A stretch of 64,000 nucleotides of DNA from Bradymonadia bacterium (GTDB lineage Bacteria > Myxococcota_A > Bradymonadia > UBA7976 > UBA1532). Positions 29,236 through 41,927 of the stretch are shown here, in pieces (position 1 is the stretch's first letter; each line of letters opens with the position of its first letter). The stretch lies in NCBI GenBank assembly GCA_046290225.1, contig JBKAGE010000043.1, forward strand, positions 39,003 to 103,002, in the 5' to 3' direction. Under the pieces are notes generated by a model. It was not told the origin of the DNA and made no database searches. It was given only the letters and a program-made list of their open reading frames with translations. The position numbers were made by a program, and so were the translations under genes.

Positions 29236-29880
29236 CTATTCGTAGACCTTGCCCTCGAAGAGATTCTCGGGAATCGCGAGGAAGTCTTTCATGTACTGGT
29301 CGTAGACTTGCTGCGCCTGAGGATCACCCAGGTCGAGTCGCAGCTCGTTGATCACCTTGACGCTCATTTCCATCCAGTCCTGCCAGCTGTCCTGGGTGAT
29401 GTGGGCCTGGATCCAATCACCCACCTCGTCGGCGAAAGGGTTGAACTGCATCTTCTGGCCGATGCGCCCTGTACGGTGGTCGCGAATCTCGCCTTCCTCC
29501 AGAGGACGATCATCTTCCACCACCGCCTCTACCGGACCGCCGGCGGTGACCTCGGGGATGGGGGCACCCTGGGCCTCGAGGTGGGCTTTGATCTCGTTGG
29601 CAGGCATCAGGTGACCTTGCTTCAGAGCCACCTCGTACCCTTGCTGCCAGATCTCCACCGCCTTGAGATCATCTCCTGAGCCAGCATGTGCCTCACCGAG
29701 GAGCACCCAGGCCTTGCTGAACTCCTCGTTGAGGCGCAGCACGTACTTCAGCGCTCCGATGGCTTCACCAGGACGGTCAGCGTTGAGGAGCGCCTGCCCC
29801 AGAGCAAAGTGGGCAAGCTCGTCTTCGGGGTTGGCCTGAGCCATCTTGCGAAACTCTTCGATCCGCTCCGAGGGGTTCAC
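29236..29880 (-). CDS. TPR + YggX-like (Fe(II)-trafficking / oxidative damage protection) fusion protein
   Basis: GTG 29880 with AGGAGG RBS; N-terminal TPRs; C-terminal PFADEVGDWIQAHITQDSWQDW...VINELRLDL....YMKDFL matches the YggX pattern. Confidence 0.8.
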   Translation of the reverse strand: MNPSERIEEFRKMAQANPEDELAHFALGQALLNADRPGEAIGALKYVLRLNEEFSKAWVLLGEAHAGSGDDLKAVEIWQQGYEVALKQGHLMPANEIKAHLEAQGAPIPEVTAGGPVEAVVEDDRPLEEGEIRDHRTGRIGQKMQFNPFADEVGDWIQAHITQDSWQDWMEMSVKVINELRLDLGDPQAQQVYDQYMKDFLAIPENLFEGKVYE

Positions 29881-30126
29881 GGAGGCCTCCTGATTCACGA
29901 TGTGGGGGCAGAGCGCTCTGCCGGTTGATGTGATGGGGGTTCGATGCCCGTCGTGGGGCGCTGGTCGCGATCCTGATGTCGGACTGGCCACCGGCCCAGC
30001 CACCTGCCCCGGGTCCGGTGACTCCACCGATGGGGCAGGGGGAGTCTACGGCATTGGGGCGATTTTGCCCGCAACCATGGGCTCTACCAGCCTTTTTTGA
30101 TCTCGACCCTACAGGTCCGCACAATT

Positions 30127-34500: not shown

Positions 34501-35577
34501 ATGATCATGATGCAGCCCGATCCCCAGAGCCCCGCAGAGCGGGCCCTCCTCCTCTCCCTCGCTCCCCAAAAGATTCAACGTCACCTCTGGACTGATTTCG
34601 TACGCAGTGCAGGTGAATGGCCTGAGCATTCTACGACCTGGCTTGCCTTCGAGCAGTGGAGCCAGACTGCCGAAGCATGGGGACACTGGTGCATCGAGCA
34701 AGAGGCCCTTGCCTGCCTCTCGGCGTCGATACTGACGCCGTTGTGTCCTCATTGGCCCATCTCTTTGCCCCCAGAGGGGGTGCTCCGAGTCAAGGGAGTC
34801 ACCCCAAGGGGCCGGGCTGTGGGCATCATCGGCGCACGTCGGGCAGATCGGTATGGCCGAGATCTCGCGAGGCGAGTGGCTGAGGTGGCCTGTGCGCAGG
34901 GGTGGAGTGTCATCTCAGGTGGGGCTGCAGGTGCTGACGCCGCGGCCCACGAAGGTGCTCTGAGCGTCGGTGGCCGAACAGTGTGGTTGATGGGTGGCGG
35001 GCTCGGACAGAGGCTCAGCGCCGATCGCCAGAAGCTCGCGGAGCGCGTCGCTGAGCAGGGCGCCGTCGTGAGCCCTTTCCCGTGCCAGATGCCGCCGAAG
35101 TCCTGGGTATTCCCAGAGCGGAACCGGTGGTTGGCGCACTGGGTGGAACAGCTCGTGGTGGTACAGGCTGATCGTCGATCGGGCTCGATGATTACGGCTC
35201 GAGCGGCCTTGCAGGCCCACCGACCTGTGTGGTCTGCCCCGGGCCCGTTGGATAGCCCGCTGCATCAGGGGTGTCACGCGCTTCTCGAAGAGGGGGCGCG
35301 ATGCCTGAGCGCTGTGGACGCCTGGCTGCCCGAATCGGAGGGGGTGTCTGCAGTCGAGCAGCCAGCAGATCTCTGTCCGAGCGATCCTGTATCCGCGGCG
35401 ATCTGGGCAGCGGCGAGCGTCGAGCCCGAGGGGGTGGCAGCCCTCGCCCGTCGCGCTGGACTGACGGTGGCCCAGGCCGGCGCTGCAGTCATTCTCATGG
35501 AGATGGAGGGGTGGTTGAGCAGCCACCCCGGAGGGCGATACGCTCGCGGTCATCTGGCACAGGAGCAGCCCAGGTGA
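34501..35577 (+). CDS. dprA: DNA-protecting protein DprA
   Basis: VGIIGAR, VISGGAAGADAAAHEGAL, FPERNR, VVVQADRRSGSMITA, C-terminal winged helix. Confidence 0.9.
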   Translation: MIMMQPDPQSPAERALLLSLAPQKIQRHLWTDFVRSAGEWPEHSTTWLAFEQWSQTAEAWGHWCIEQEALACLSASILTPLCPHWPISLPPEGVLRVKGVTPRGRAVGIIGARRADRYGRDLARRVAEVACAQGWSVISGGAAGADAAAHEGALSVGGRTVWLMGGGLGQRLSADRQKLAERVAEQGAVVSPFPCQMPPKSWVFPERNRWLAHWVEQLVVVQADRRSGSMITARAALQAHRPVWSAPGPLDSPLHQGCHALLEEGARCLSAVDAWLPESEGVSAVEQPADLCPSDPVSAAIWAAASVEPEGVAALARRAGLTVAQAGAAVILMEMEGWLSSHPGGRYARGHLAQEQPR

Positions 35578-37319
35578 ACGCTTCGAATCAGCCCCTGATG
35601 ATCGTCGAGTCTCCCCGCACCGCAGAGGTGCTCCGATGGCGGCTCGGGGCGCCCTGGAAGGTGGGGTTCACCCGCGGCAGCCTCATGGAGGCGAACGAGC
35701 TCGGCTGGCGACCGAGGGTGGACAGGCGGTCGGAGATCGAGGCCCTCGTCGAGGCTGCTGCAGAGGCAAGTGATGTCTATGTGGCCACTGACGATGACCG
35801 GGAGGGGGAGGGCATTGCCGGTCAGGTTCGGTGGGCGCTGAGGCACACCCACAGTGACCTCTGGCGACTCCGCACCCCGAGTGTGCTCGATGAGCCAACG
35901 CTGCACGAGGCCCTCGCCGATGCGAAGCCTCTCGGAGCCGATGTGGGAGAGAAGGCCCGGTGGGCCCATCTCGTAGATCGGGCCCTGAGTGCCGAGCTGG
36001 GTCAGCGACTGTCCTCCGTTGGGGGGAGCGCTCCGGGACGGGTGCAGGTGGCGGCCCTGGGACTGATGAGTGGCGCCTTCAAGGACGCATGGCCCATAGA
36101 CGAGCGCCGCTCTCAGCAACCACTGGATACCGCGGGGTTGTGGGTGGCCACTTCACGGCGTCAACTGGAGACACGGGCGGGTCATGTGGTGCGTCATCTC
36201 GGCCGGCCAGAGGTGGAGTCCATCACCCAGCATCTCTATCTCAAGGGCCTGATCAGTTATCCAAGGACGCGCAGCACCTGGATGCCGCCCACATATGTCG
36301 AGCAGGCTAGGGGCGTGCTGTCCAGGCATGGCACGCTCCGAGACTCGCCACTCCAGGCCCCTGCCAGCGCTCATGGTGCCCTGAGGCCGTCGTGGTTCGA
36401 CGACACAGGGCCCCAGGGGCTGCGACAGCTCGTCAGCGCCCCTGATGCCCACACTGTGCTGGCGCTCATCTGGTCACACACTGCAGCCTGCCTCGCAGGG
36501 CCAGAGCATCCATGGGCCCGATGGGGGATCGAGCCCCTCGACGGACCCATGGGGTGGGGCGAGATCGCCGGAAGACTGATCTGGGCCGGGGTGAGCACAC
36601 CGGCGAGCGTAGGGGCATCACTCACCAGGGTGGTGCATCACGGCTGGGTCCATGGGCCATCAACGAGCGCAGAGATTCGGTTGAGCCCGGCAGGTGGTCG
36701 GATCGTCGATCTGCTGGCAGCCCATTGCCCGGAGGCGCTCACGCCGGCCCTCACTGCTCGCGTCGAGACCTGGCTCGCTGATCCTGAAGTCGACCACGCC
36801 TCGGCATTGCGATGGCCCCATGAGGTGGCCAGGTCATTGTTGCGGTGGCGCGTGGGCGTATCGCCCACCCCCTCACCTACATCGAATGATGGGGTGTCGT
36901 GCCCGGACTGTGGTGGCTCGATGAGCATTCGACGGGGCCGACGGGGGCAGTTCTGGGGATGCGACGATTTTCCGCGCTGCAGAGGCACTGCGCCCTTGGA
37001 AACCCCGGGGAGGCTCAGTCGGCAGGCACCCTTCTCGATGGCCTGCCCACACTGTGAAGATGGCCAGGTGACGCCACGGCGTGGGCGAGGCGGGCGATGG
37101 ACCTATCATTGCTCCAATGGAGCACGGTGCGATTTCTTCTGCCGTGATCGCCCAGTGGCTGTAGAGTGCCCCCGTTGTCGACACGGCTACATGGTGGAGT
37201 ACACGCCTCACGCTCGAGGCACCTCTCGCTTCGTGGTGCGACCCTCAGTCCACCCCGACAGCCCCGAGCAGCCGACGCTCTCCTGCCCTGCGTGTCGACA
37301 TCGGATCTCCCGGCGCTGA
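35574..37319 (+). CDS. topA: Divergent, internally deleted type IA DNA topoisomerase (TopA-like) with 3 C4 zinc ribbons
   Basis: GTG overlapping the dprA stop; IVESP, ATDDDREGE, GRVQ, LISYPRT (catalytic Tyr codon 36258), AHGALRP; CPDC..C..FPRC ribbons; dprA-topA-trmFO synteny. Confidence 0.78.
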   Translation: MNASNQPLMIVESPRTAEVLRWRLGAPWKVGFTRGSLMEANELGWRPRVDRRSEIEALVEAAAEASDVYVATDDDREGEGIAGQVRWALRHTHSDLWRLRTPSVLDEPTLHEALADAKPLGADVGEKARWAHLVDRALSAELGQRLSSVGGSAPGRVQVAALGLMSGAFKDAWPIDERRSQQPLDTAGLWVATSRRQLETRAGHVVRHLGRPEVESITQHLYLKGLISYPRTRSTWMPPTYVEQARGVLSRHGTLRDSPLQAPASAHGALRPSWFDDTGPQGLRQLVSAPDAHTVLALIWSHTAACLAGPEHPWARWGIEPLDGPMGWGEIAGRLIWAGVSTPASVGASLTRVVHHGWVHGPSTSAEIRLSPAGGRIVDLLAAHCPEALTPALTARVETWLADPEVDHASALRWPHEVARSLLRWRVGVSPTPSPTSNDGVSCPDCGGSMSIRRGRRGQFWGCDDFPRCRGTAPLETPGRLSRQAPFSMACPHCEDGQVTPRRGRGGRWTYHCSNGARCDFFCRDRPVAVECPRCRHGYMVEYTPHARGTSRFVVRPSVHPDSPEQPTLSCPACRHRISRR

Positions 37320-37362: not shown

Positions 37363-38706
37363 GTGAGCTCGATCAAAGACACGGGCCCGATCAAAGTCAT
37401 TGGGGGTGGTCTCGCCGGGTGCGAAGTGGCCATCCAGCTGGCCCGCCGCGGTGTGGCCGTGGAACTGTACGAGATGAAGCCCGAGCGGCGCACACCGGCG
37501 CAGAAGAGCGACGGTCTCGCAGAGCTCGTGTGCTCCAACAGCTTCCGGAGCGCCAACACATCCAACGCCATCGGGTTGCTGAAGTGGGAGATGCGCCATG
37601 TCGGCAGCCGCATCATGCAGGCCGCCGACAAACACGCCGTGCCTGCAGGGGATGCCCTCGCCGTCGATCGGGACAAGTTCTCTGATGAGATGACTGCCAT
37701 CATCGCAGCAGATCCGCTGATCACCGTGCGTCACGAGGTGGTGACCTCGATCCCCGAGGGGCCCACGGTGATTTGTACCGGGCCCCTCACGGCGACAGAG
37801 CTGGCCCAGGACATCGCCCGCCGCGCCGGACGCGACAGCCTCTACTTCTACGATGCCATCGCCCCCATCATCGACGCCGACAGCATCAACTGGGACATCG
37901 TCTGGCGGCAGAGCCGCTACGACAAGGGCGAGGGCGCCGACTACGCCAACATCCCCCTGAACGAAGAGCAGTACATGGCCTTCGTGCAGGGGGTCGTCGA
38001 TGGCGAGAAGGTGGTGCCCAAAGCCTTCGAAGAGGCGAAGTACTTCGAAGGCTGCCTGCCCATCGAGGTCATGGCAGAGCGGGGGCCGCTCACCCTGGCC
38101 CATGGACCCATGAAGCCCGTGGGCCTCACTGATCCCCGGACGGGCTCTTCATGCTTTGCCGTGGCCCAGCTGCGGATGGAGAATCGCGAGGGCACTGCGT
38201 GGAACATGGTGGGCTTCCAGACGCGCCTCAAGTATCCCGAGCAGCGTCGGCTGTTCCGCAGTATGCCTGGCCTCGAAGGCGCAGAGTTCCTGCGGTTCGG
38301 CAGCGTGCATCGGAACACGTACGTGCACTCACCCAGCCTGCTCAGCGATGACCTGCACTGGCATGACGATGACAATCTCTGGCTTGCAGGGCAGATCACC
38401 GGTGTCGAGGGGTACGTGGAATCCACCGCCTGTGGCCTGCTCATCGCGTGGCATCTACTGGCTCAGCTCAAGGGCGTGACTCTGCCGTCGCCGCCGGCGA
38501 CGACGGCCTTCGGGGCGATGAAGCGCCACCTCAGAGGGGAAGGGGTGTTGTCGGATTACAGCCCGAGCAACCTCAACTGGAGTCTCTTCGCCCCCATCGA
38601 GAAGGTTCGGCGAGAAAAGAAGCGGGATCGCAGAGCGCGTATGTCTGCCCGGGCTCAGACTGACCTGAAGGCCTGGTGGGCTGAGGTGGAAGCGCTGCTG
38701 GGTTGA
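37363..38706 (+). CDS. trmFO: Methylenetetrahydrofolate-tRNA-(uracil-54)-methyltransferase TrmFO
   Basis: VIGGGLAGCE, AELVCSNS, YFYDAIAP, YFEGCLPIE, GPMKPVGL, GQITGVEGYVES. Confidence 0.96.
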   Translation: MSSIKDTGPIKVIGGGLAGCEVAIQLARRGVAVELYEMKPERRTPAQKSDGLAELVCSNSFRSANTSNAIGLLKWEMRHVGSRIMQAADKHAVPAGDALAVDRDKFSDEMTAIIAADPLITVRHEVVTSIPEGPTVICTGPLTATELAQDIARRAGRDSLYFYDAIAPIIDADSINWDIVWRQSRYDKGEGADYANIPLNEEQYMAFVQGVVDGEKVVPKAFEEAKYFEGCLPIEVMAERGPLTLAHGPMKPVGLTDPRTGSSCFAVAQLRMENREGTAWNMVGFQTRLKYPEQRRLFRSMPGLEGAEFLRFGSVHRNTYVHSPSLLSDDLHWHDDDNLWLAGQITGVEGYVESTACGLLIAWHLLAQLKGVTLPSPPATTAFGAMKRHLRGEGVLSDYSPSNLNWSLFAPIEKVRREKKRDRRARMSARAQTDLKAWWAEVEALLG

Positions 38707-38710
38707 TGCC

Positions 38711-39613
38711 TCAGGGGGTCTCCATCAACAGCTCGGTGATGGAGCGATGGCGGCGGTCGAGATCGCTGCGGATCGACTTGAGTCGGGACTGACGGACGCC
38801 GCAGGCGGCGACGACATCGTCCATAGCCATACACAACTTCTGATAGTGCTTCGATGTGTAGGCCTCAAGAGCTCGGCGATCGTCACTCGGAAGCTGTCGC
38901 AGCCCCTCGAGAGGTGCCAGCACATCATCGGAGATGACACAGCGGGCGGCGAGCTCGATGTGATGCTCACTGTAATATGCTCTGAGTTGCTTGACCTGCT
39001 GAGCCATTTTGCGTCGATTGATGTTGGGCAGAAGATCGACAGCGCCGAGGGCGAGCTCTTCCACCGGGTCATCTGTGGCCTTCGTCGGCTTCAGCGACTG
39101 ACCCATTTCGCGCAGGCTCTGACAGACGCCGTGCTGATCTCTCAAGCGTCCCATTTGAATGGAGAGTTCTGACGATTCTTTGATGACCATCTCTCTCTGC
39201 TCCACGAGGGCCGCCACCACTTGCTCTCGGGCCAGATGGTTTTGAGTATCAAGCTTGGCATTCTGGAACAGCAGGAGTACCGTCTGAATGATCAGTACGG
39301 CAGCAGGCAGTATGGCGAAGAGCAGGCCAAAGAGTCCCACGCGGACAAATCGGGCAAAGGCGGCAGAAAAGAAGTCCACCGTCTCGGGTATGGGTGCGTG
39401 CTCGCGCTCGCCTTTTTGCCATGACTCTGCAGCCTCCGACAGGCGTCGGGCCGCCCGATTGAACGACCGCCCCAGCAGCGCCCTCGCCCCCCACCTGAGC
39501 GTGCGCTCCGACACACGCTCCACACGTGCCCTCTGAGCGAGCTGTGTCGTGAGTCTCTGGTTTTCGGCTTCGAGCGCTTCCAGCCTCGCCTTCAGGGCTG
39601 CCTCGTCTGACAT
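38711..39613 (-). CDS. Hypothetical membrane-anchored coiled-coil protein
   Basis: GGAGG RBS before ATG 39613; N-terminal coiled coil, one hydrophobic segment, helical C-terminus with several Cys. Confidence 0.65.
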   Translation of the reverse strand: MSDEAALKARLEALEAENQRLTTQLAQRARVERVSERTLRWGARALLGRSFNRAARRLSEAAESWQKGEREHAPIPETVDFFSAAFARFVRVGLFGLLFAILPAAVLIIQTVLLLFQNAKLDTQNHLAREQVVAALVEQREMVIKESSELSIQMGRLRDQHGVCQSLREMGQSLKPTKATDDPVEELALGAVDLLPNINRRKMAQQVKQLRAYYSEHHIELAARCVISDDVLAPLEGLRQLPSDDRRALEAYTSKHYQKLCMAMDDVVAACGVRQSRLKSIRSDLDRRHRSITELLMETP

Positions 39614-39664
39614 GGGACCTCCTCTGCTCTCCTCGCGCACTCGACCTGCCCGGGCCTCGACTCA

Positions 39665-41161
39665 ATGGGGGTCAACGCCCCGATGAGCGATTTACTGCCC
39701 AAGGTGTTCAAGCACATGTCGGCCCCGGTCTGGGTGCTTAACCTCTCCGATATGGCCTTTACCGAAGCCACCGGGAGTGCGTTGAACCTTTGGGGCTCGA
39801 CCGATCTACAGGCCCTCAACAGCCGACTGAAGGCCCCATCTTCCAAAATGTTCAGGGCCCGGTTGCGCAGCTATTGCGATCGAGTCGCCGACGGCAGAGT
39901 GCTCAAAGAGGCCTGGACCTTCTACCCCGAGGGCCGCCCCGTCAAGCGCGAGGTGACGCTGAGCGGCACGCGGTGCATGAAGGATCAGGTGTTCCTCATT
40001 GGCGAGGTACTCCCCCAAGCCCATGGTGAGCCAAGGGAGGGGGGCAACCTCGTCGCCGCGGTGAGCCATGAGCTGCGTACGCCGATGCATGCCGTGGTGG
40101 GCTTCCTCGATTTGCTCGCCGATGCTGGTCTCGACGAGCAACGTGGGGAGCTGGTGGACACCGCCCGTGGCGCCGCTGAGGGCATGATCGCTCTGCTTGA
40201 TGACTTGCTCGATGCAGCAAAACTCGCCTCAGGGCGCCTCGAGGTCGAGCGGATCCCCATGGACGTCTGGGCCATCTGCAAACGGTGCTGTCAGCTGGTC
40301 ATGCTCAGCGCGCACCGAAAAGGCCTGCGGGTCAATCTGCACATCGACGAAGACGTGCCTCGCTGGATCATGGGTGATCCTACGCGGCTGCAGCAGGTGA
40401 TCATCAATCTGCTCAGCAACGGGGTAAAGTTCACAGAGCGGGGCCGAGTGAGCCTGCATCTTGAGCTGTCAGAGCCCGAGATGGTGGTCTTCAAGGTGCA
40501 GGACACGGGCATCGGTATGAGCCCGCAGGCGGTGGCGCAGATCTTCGAGGCCTTCACTCAGGCTGACCCCACGGTGGCCCGCAGGTTCGGCGGTACCGGC
40601 CTGGGGTTGTCGATCTGCCGCGAGTTGGTGGAGCGGATGAACGGTCAGATCGAGGTGGAGAGCCAGGAGGGGAGGGGGACGCTGTTCTGGTTCACGCTCC
40701 CCGCTGAGCCCGCCGATGGCCTGACCCCGATGCCTGAAGAGTCGCCCCCAGTGGCCGATAAAGCGCTGTCGGTGCTCGTCGCCGAAGACAACCCCGTCAA
40801 CCAGCGGCTGGTTCGGCTGATGCTCGGGCGCATGGGCCATGACTGCACCCTCGTCACCGATGGCATCGCTGCCATCGAGGCATGGCGTGGCGAGGGGTCC
40901 TTCGACGCGATTTTGATGGACGTGCAGATGCCCAAGATGGACGGCCTCACGGCGAGCAGGCTGCTCCGGGAAGAGGGGTGCACTCTGCCCATCGTCGGCG
41001 TGACGGCGAACGCCTCCCCAGAAGAGACGCGCTTGTGCCTCTCAGCGGGGATGAGCGTTGTCCTCGGCAAGCCCTATCGGCTCTCTCAACTCGCTGAGGT
41101 GCTTACGGTGCACGTGGAGGGCGCTGGGACCCGGACCGCGCGCCCGATCTTCGACGACTGA
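39665..41161 (+). CDS. Hybrid sensor histidine kinase/response regulator (PAS-like input, HisKA, HATPase, REC)
   Basis: SHELRTPM, RLQQVIINLLSNGVKFT, DTGIG, GGTGLGL, LVAEDNPVN, ILMDVQMPKMDG. Start may be ATG 39683. Confidence 0.92.
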   Translation: MGVNAPMSDLLPKVFKHMSAPVWVLNLSDMAFTEATGSALNLWGSTDLQALNSRLKAPSSKMFRARLRSYCDRVADGRVLKEAWTFYPEGRPVKREVTLSGTRCMKDQVFLIGEVLPQAHGEPREGGNLVAAVSHELRTPMHAVVGFLDLLADAGLDEQRGELVDTARGAAEGMIALLDDLLDAAKLASGRLEVERIPMDVWAICKRCCQLVMLSAHRKGLRVNLHIDEDVPRWIMGDPTRLQQVIINLLSNGVKFTERGRVSLHLELSEPEMVVFKVQDTGIGMSPQAVAQIFEAFTQADPTVARRFGGTGLGLSICRELVERMNGQIEVESQEGRGTLFWFTLPAEPADGLTPMPEESPPVADKALSVLVAEDNPVNQRLVRLMLGRMGHDCTLVTDGIAAIEAWRGEGSFDAILMDVQMPKMDGLTASRLLREEGCTLPIVGVTANASPEETRLCLSAGMSVVLGKPYRLSQLAEVLTVHVEGAGTRTARPIFDD

Positions 41162-41174
41162 GCGCGCTGCACAC

Positions 41175-41927
41175 TCAGGGCGCTTTTGGCTTGAGGCGCT
41201 TCTTCTTGCCTTTGCCCGCTGTGTCCAAACCACATCGCAGATCCTTGCCTTTGCACATCGCCACGTTGCCCGGCACGCGGAGCTGACCACCCTCGTCTGC
41301 TCGAGCACGGCCGATCAGGGTGACCTGCTGCCCGATCAACGGCCGCCATTTCTCTACGCGTTTGGGCCCTCGAGTCACGGGCCCGATGATGATCTCTGCG
41401 TTGTCTTCCGCCATGTGCATGCGGGCGGTGACTTCGCCCTCGGGGCTGACATCGACGGATTTCAGCGTGCCTTCGTATCGCGACCAGCGACCCAGGCGCA
41501 GCCCGATTTGATGCGCACTCATCACGGTGAAGGGGGTCGGGATGCCATCGACGCTTTCGTTGGGTGTCTGCCAGGGCACCAGCGTGATCGACTCCACCTC
41601 GAAGTGCTCGCCGGTCACGTGCTGCGTCATCGGCGAAGGGGTATAGGGTCGCCCGGTGACTTCCACCCTGCGATTGGCGAACTTGAACTCCTCCGGCACG
41701 GGTCGATAGCTGCGGATGAAGGGACTCAGCCCGGACTCTCGATGCAGGAGCACGGGCTGGAATCGCTTTCCACCGGGCAGAGGTGTGACTTCATAGTCGG
41801 CGACGAAGGTCATCCGCTTGCCGTACGTGGGCGCGTAGGGATCGGGCTCGGCCTGACTGTCGGGCTCACCCGCAGAGGCGGTGAGGGCCACACTGCTGGT
41901 GAGCAGGAAGGCGAGGGGGCGCTTCAT
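41175..41927 (-). CDS. Secreted hypothetical protein, possibly two OB-fold-like repeats
   Basis: GGGAGG RBS; signal peptide ASA|GE; repeated NRRVEVTGR / GQQVTLIGR motif. Confidence 0.6.
   Translation of the reverse strand: MKRPLAFLLTSSVALTASAGEPDSQAEPDPYAPTYGKRMTFVADYEVTPLPGGKRFQPVLLHRESGLSPFIRSYRPVPEEFKFANRRVEVTGRPYTPSPMTQHVTGEHFEVESITLVPWQTPNESVDGIPTPFTVMSAHQIGLRLGRWSRYEGTLKSVDVSPEGEVTARMHMAEDNAEIIIGPVTRGPKRVEKWRPLIGQQVTLIGRARADEGGQLRVPGNVAMCKGKDLRCGLDTAGKGKKKRLKPKAP

Follow-up and report, generated by a model that had tools for sequence, protein, structure and literature searches.

The four-domain core of type IA topoisomerases is likened to a padlock: domain II makes up most of the cavity and mediates opening of the gate, a step that is called unresolved in the available text of the reviews concerned (PMC9960139, PMC7587558). 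In E. coli, according to the accessible part of the literature, this core is able to cleave and rejoin DNA but passes no strands without the C-terminal domains. Linkage of topA to dprA is described as widespread in the portion of PMC5817196 that was available. Titles and the opening lines of abstracts, a body of text in which subscription journals are largely missing and supplements absent, contained no natural type IA protein devoid of domain II, and there was none in the accessible part of a phylogenomic review (PMC2647321).

The window considered here, a stretch of 64,000 nucleotides from a Bradymonadia bacterium, contains a dprA-trmFO locus in which the intervening gene encodes a reduced, arch-less relative of TopA. 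The upstream dprA gene (34501-35577, forward strand) encodes a protein of 358 amino acids, ordinary for its family, identified by the Pfam domains DNA_processg_A and DprA_WH and by alignment with relatives. The arch-less gene (35574-37319, forward strand) is a single open frame of 581 amino acids without an internal stop in translation, as the original prediction had it. Its GTG start shares four bases (GTGA) with the TGA stop of dprA, and an AGGAG ribosome-binding-like site lies 8 bases 5' of the start, site and overlap together spanning 35561-35577. The third gene (37363-38706, forward strand) encodes a flavoprotein that Pfam itself calls GIDA; it is presumably trmFO, the name proposed in the original prediction. 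A promoter and terminator scan returned matches at chance level only.

Other features of the window may be recorded here. Between trmFO and a XerC-like recombinase gene, 38711-41927 encodes proteins of 309 and 250 amino acids, both without a Pfam match, together with a hybrid histidine kinase; in most relatives the trmFO and XerC-like genes are adjacent or nearly so. On the reverse strand, 29236-30027 encodes TPR repeats fused to a Fe(2+)-trafficking (Iron_traffic) domain in one protein.

The 581-residue protein is shortened at two places. From the GRVQ glycine (Gly155) to the catalytic Tyr229 there are 74 residues, against 125 in TopA of E. coli K-12, and from Leu298 of the LIW helix to the equivalent of G492 there are 43, against 99; both spacings agree with those first reported, the second of which had been put at about 43 versus roughly 100. 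Among 270 proteins in which the GRVQ-to-Tyr distance could be measured it is 118-224 (median 134) in 224, and in 73 measurements from 80 viral loci it is 117-158. The remaining 46 of the 270, at 58-82, comprise the 581-residue protein, its homolog cluster and a second arch-less family discussed below. Relative to 78 full-length proteins the first site lacks a median of 6+20+34 residues and the second one of 49+9+6, or about 60 and 64, some 124 together. By alignment, short linkers of roughly 10-25 residues replace the two segments, at 36069-36131 and 36489-36563 on the forward strand, and both junctions are in frame.

By the domain boundaries in E. coli TopA numbering, the missing segments are assigned to domain II, an assignment backed by a structure model and its superposition. 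Predicted from an 80-row alignment (pLDDT 83.6, pTM 0.76), the model has no beta-arch, and residues 166 to 430 are without extended strands; its confidence leans on full-length relatives, as prediction from two sequences alone gave a pLDDT of 44.5 and was unusable. It aligns with the E. coli covalent complex (3px7_A) with a Z score of 30.8 and an rmsd of 3.3 for 389 residues, over E. coli residues 2-579. A superposition of this kind had been proposed as a check; it revealed no compact but complete domain II, and the claim that the arch is wholly missing is borne out. The match to an isolated domain II-III fragment (1cyy_A; Z 16.0, rmsd 2.5, 127 residues aligned) begins only at residue 280. All full-core matches among solved structures possess domain II.

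What is left of the enzyme can be followed domain by domain along the forward strand. Pfam recognises Toprim and Zn_ribbon_Top1, and the best stretch of Topoisom_bac covers only positions 145-250 of 411. Domain I (35574-35933) keeps the Toprim acids E12, D73, D75 and E77 (E. coli E9, D111, D113 and E115), with T16 at the position of K13. The first half of domain IV (35934-36083) keeps D135-R136 and GRVQ, and the equivalents of R168, R169 and Y177 are changed. Domain III (36114-36503) retains the catalytic Y229 (codon 36258-36260), the arginine two residues on (R231) and the His365 equivalent (H267); M320 is replaced by proline and the D323 equivalent is lost. In the second half of domain IV (36549-36854), alignment and model show GRPST eroded to STPAS and the last helix degenerate. 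A segment of domain I and a 9-residue insert of domain III are also lost or eroded. The GRPST arginine, whose loss had been pointed out, has given way to threonine, as in the Topo III of the same genome (GLGTPATR). Three four-cysteine zinc ribbons follow (36894-37307). As full-length orthologs carry four, one has been lost; the three that remain are intact, as first described.

A single homolog cluster, P0004 (572 amino acids, five members), is 40% identical over its full length and carries both deletions, with spacings of 58 and 41 residues. This family, hereafter family A, consists of two independent sequences only: protein clusters at 90% or 50% held no further members, contigs from genomes or metagenomes gave zinc-ribbon matches only, and 112 genomes of the class and 400 of the phylum yielded none either. 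In E. coli numbering, K13, R169, Y177, W184, D323, E366, R493, R507 and D551 are changed in both proteins. K13 has become threonine, Y177 alanine and R169 histidine or glutamine in the two, and R168 is alanine in the 581-residue protein only. Of ten residues in the G-strand groove (K13, R168, R169, D172, R173, Y177, G194, R195, Q197, R507) five are kept in the 581-residue protein and six in P0004, a count to be read alongside Topo III, which itself differs at some of them.

The 581-residue protein is a derivative of TopA and not a member of that family, since it fails both the structural and the family-score tests: it lacks the four-domain toroid with its arch, and it scores 64.9 bits on the TopA model TIGR01051 (cut-off 456.4), where a full ortholog scores 842. 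On the curated TopB family model it reaches 25.9 bits against 515.75. Nor is it a bare set of ribbons, given its 430-residue core, or a pseudogene, its gene showing neither a broken frame nor signs of neutral divergence. With zinc-ribbon TopA (TIGR01051; E. coli structures 3px7 and 4rul) it shares the fold and order of domains I, III and IV, the Toprim acids, GRVQ, Tyr-x-Arg and His365, the C-terminal ribbons and the place after dprA; it differs in its missing domain II and lower score, in having one ribbon fewer than its orthologs, and at K13, R169, Y177, M320, D323 and R493. Like Topo III it has proline after the catalytic tyrosine, threonine at the R493 position and other residues at 169 and 177, but Topo III has a full domain II, and the 581-residue protein scores higher on TopA models and has ribbons of the TopA type. 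E. coli YrdD offers a further parallel, in that TopA-type ribbons persist in the gene cluster of dprA (smf) and a complete TopA is encoded elsewhere; YrdD, however, consists of ribbons only (180 amino acids), whereas the 581-residue protein retains the cleavage core.

A second family without domain II was reached through P0004. A search with this cluster led to P0160, and a search with P0160 to 26 clusters lacking both domain II segments, 25 of them near-complete (P0160-P0184). These 25 are 426-484 amino acids long and 61-86% identical to P0160, with GRVQ-to-Tyr distances of 73-82 and linkers that are rich in Pro, Ala and Gly and variable in length. The family shares with the 581-residue protein the loss of both segments, a YPR(T/S) motif and the loss of D323, which is always absent, and M320 is always proline. 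It differs in its shorter length, in having zinc ribbons in none of its clusters and in its better kept groove residues. D111, D113, R168, R169, D172, R173, G194, R195, Q197, Y319, R321, R493, T496 and D551 are invariant in 25 of 25, but only 13 retain H365 and 14 K13. The nearest full-length relatives carry the source name Anaeromyxobacteraceae, and full-length relatives with domain II already have the proline and a tryptophan six residues on. The family was not found among plasmids, phages or viral contigs, nor in 401 genomes of the phylum or 301 of the order, searches in which only 4-5 candidates were scored per genome.

Several proteins lie at the margins of this set. In P0170, P0171 and P0173, members of the second family, domain III has lost more of its length, the His365 loop included, yet the catalytic Tyr and Arg are kept. 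P0198, P0216, P0188, P0029, P0044 and P0063 are fast-evolving full-length TopA proteins with proline after the catalytic tyrosine, and may be secondary copies that are moving the same way and still have the arch. ESM Atlas Toprim/TopA clusters of 439 and 455 amino acids (68 and 65 members, most commonly Balneolota; TM 0.72 and 0.68), known by structural rather than sequence match, are possibly a third arch-less family.

The genome that carries the 581-residue protein is 99.4% complete and encodes two further complete type IA enzymes: a 928-residue TopA with C-terminal repeats, which exceeds the TIGR01051 cut-off and answers the original suggestion to look for a second full-length topA, and an 841-residue Topo III, which exceeds that of PRK07726. 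No separate domain II gene was found in this genome, a weak result, as the search also missed the domain II of the second TopA itself. Among 30 relatives in the order, 23 with dprA and trmFO on one stretch were counted and the other seven left out. In seven of the 23, forming one clade, a full zinc-ribbon TopA (758-781 amino acids) lies between the two genes, in the dprA-topA-trmFO order that had been taken as ancestral. In the other 16 there is no topA at the locus, and dprA and trmFO abut with a gap of -22 to 102 bases; topA remnants were sought at 27 loci without the gene, and none was seen. TopA with C-terminal repeats is present in 13 of these 16, against none of the seven. The other three are two incomplete genomes in which only a Topo III was seen and one in which TopA is broken by a contig end. 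The 20 extracted proteins of the C-terminal repeat type form one clade in which the copy from this genome is deepest; the species tree of the relatives, made with FastTree, has a weak backbone. We infer that the two TopA types were present side by side in the early history of the order, that kin retained one or the other, and that, of the lineages searched, only this one held on to both, one of them reduced.

Individual loci add some detail. In L220 and L221 (G014 and G022; one genus; 89% and 77% complete) the only type IA gene seen is of the Topo III type, and TopA may be lost or unassembled. In L101 (G021:C11:90979-93059) the C-terminal repeat TopA is split over several frames, possibly through assembly errors.

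The proximity of the reduced gene to dprA had raised the prospect of a DprA-coupled protein. This is unsupported, because the adjacency is inherited and DprA is kept, and looks much the same, whether a relative has a full topA or has lost it, alignment with relatives revealing no co-variation of DprA with the state of topA. The spacing is no looser in many relatives without topA, where dprA runs directly up to trmFO or into it. The genome also has a ComEC-type gene. The prediction of a complex with DprA scored 0.00, which counts neither for nor against. Beyond inheritance, nothing links the reduced protein to DprA.

Whether the two arch-less families share an origin was addressed with several kinds of data. 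In favour of one origin, trees nest family A within the second family, LG+G4 rejects a grouping of the 581-residue protein with its local orthologs (p-AU 0.00014), and ten columns are common only to the 581-residue protein and the second family, against two shared only with the orthologs. Recoding, however, lifts the rejection (p-AU 0.48, 0.15 and 0.06), Gly, Ala, Arg and Pro abound in both families, and when the second family is removed the 581-residue protein joins an unrelated long branch. Its gene also occupies the orthologous locus. In a ranking of 241 proteins by their ribbons, four of the seven orthologs come 2, 3, 5 and 6 and the other three 64-81, and its ribbons are without the CxxxC and CxxxxC spacings found in the full-length kin of the second family. 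On the whole, separate origins appear marginally the more probable.

As to function, the economical reading of intact domains I, III and IV joined by short linkers is cleavage and resealing of single-stranded DNA without efficient passage. In this scheme a second TopA, with C-terminal repeats and encoded elsewhere in the genome, would have freed the topA of the ancestral locus from supercoil control; most kin would then have dropped it, and this lineage would have retained a reduced form. With two short linkers in place of domain II, domains I, III and IV could still close into a cleavage site, without a rigid cavity. Single-stranded DNA would be bound through the domain IV groove and the zinc ribbons, cut by way of a 5'-phosphotyrosine on Y229, the Toprim metal site taking part, and then resealed, with relaxed sequence preference and little or no strand passage. 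The role may lie in repair or recombination, where single-stranded or gapped DNA would be nicked and closed. Such a retained nicking-closing enzyme, suggested by sequence and model, has a little under an even chance of being correct.

Several groove positions on which cleavage by E. coli TopA depends carry other residues in the 581-residue protein, though nicking-closing remains plausible. In the accessible text of PMC5983628, K13A and K13R substitutions greatly reduce cleavage; in that of PMC7587558, Y177S abolishes it, R168 is required and R169A lowers relaxation 150-fold, yet Topo III, with other residues at 169, 173 and 177, still cleaves. Proline after the catalytic tyrosine is common in other type IA enzymes, as the available part of PMC2241903 has it. 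The changes at K13, R169 and Y177, and at R168 in the 581-residue protein, keep alive a rival, in which the protein is a dead or nearly dead single-strand binder or scaffold, kept for its ribbons and DNA groove as a larger counterpart of YrdD. YrdD is reported to bind single-stranded DNA in the accessible portion of PMC4678816, and its gene is found two genes downstream of smf in E. coli. Conservation between the two family A proteins is highest in the ribbons, on short branches, and H365 is eroded in the second family. Against this, all seven chemistry residues (E9, D111, D113, E115, Y319, R321 and H365, taken from the review PMC7587558 but chosen after the alignment was seen) are kept in both family A proteins, where half of comparably conserved positions have changed: of the 66 near-invariant core columns that neither protein lacks, 33 are kept in both, the seven among them (hypergeometric P 0.0055). 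The second family, moreover, is wholly without ribbons, and yet none of its 25 near-complete clusters has lost Y319, R321 or either of the acidic pair. A dead binder is a live rival, albeit an unlikely one.

Less likely still is a minimal true topoisomerase, in which domain III, still joined covalently to domain IV through a pair of flexible linkers, swings out so that one single strand, not a duplex, passes the break into a slack loop. The chemistry residues are intact, the linkers have a suitable length, and those of the second family have the composition and variability expected of tethers; partial-opening and sliding models of the gate are published, in the available text of PMC9960139 and PMC7587558. 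The same text of PMC9960139 nevertheless makes domain II responsible for opening the gate and for the greater part of the cavity, and that of PMC13338365 describes a gate tuned by salt bridges between domains II and III. No genome was seen to rely solely on an arch-less copy, this one having two complete type IA enzymes, and the second family is without the C-terminal domains in whose absence the E. coli core passes no strands.

That a redundant gene is decaying slowly, under weak selection and on course for loss as in most relatives, is much harder to sustain. The branches are very long, codon adaptation is low (15th percentile among 3525 long frames, with dprA at the 11th and trmFO at the 67th), 16 of 23 relatives no longer have the gene at the locus, and 400 other genomes of the phylum have no close match. 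The gene and P0004, however, are open frames with matching ends, about two changes per site apart, and conservation is gathered at functional columns: the two proteins share a residue at 49 of the 72 near-invariant columns but at only 58 of the 198 variable ones (p 2e-8). In one sequencing run (X1), a single metagenome contig piece of depth 2.5 over 35718-35929, in the Toprim part, has seven differences, and all six of those listed are synonymous (P about 0.003). The gene is apparently kept under selection, as originally proposed, and not decaying at random; a 40%-identical homolog with the same two deletions and all seven cleavage and religation residues also shows that it is neither an artefact nor a recent pseudogene. 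An assembly error or a deletion private to this genome can practically be dismissed, for although one DNA run gave pieces only, with no independent read or contig across either junction, both junctions are in frame and the independent cluster misses the same segments.

Returning to the retained nicking-closing enzyme, natural and selected proteins of this kind would separate cleavage chemistry from strand passage, and so allow a direct test of the role of the arch. Arch-less genes would represent a middle stage, in which a displaced housekeeping gene is reduced instead of lost, and they are hidden in databases as plain "DNA topoisomerase I", the automatic annotation that the second family carries. 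It is possible, though we would wager against it, that type IA enzymes without the arch make up an active class that has arisen repeatedly, comprising family A, the family of 25 clusters and perhaps the 439- and 455-residue Atlas clusters, and that they either pass a single strand through a tethered gate or are dedicated to breaking and joining single-stranded DNA or RNA. If such an active class with a tethered gate exists, domain II would be dispensable for topoisomerase action.
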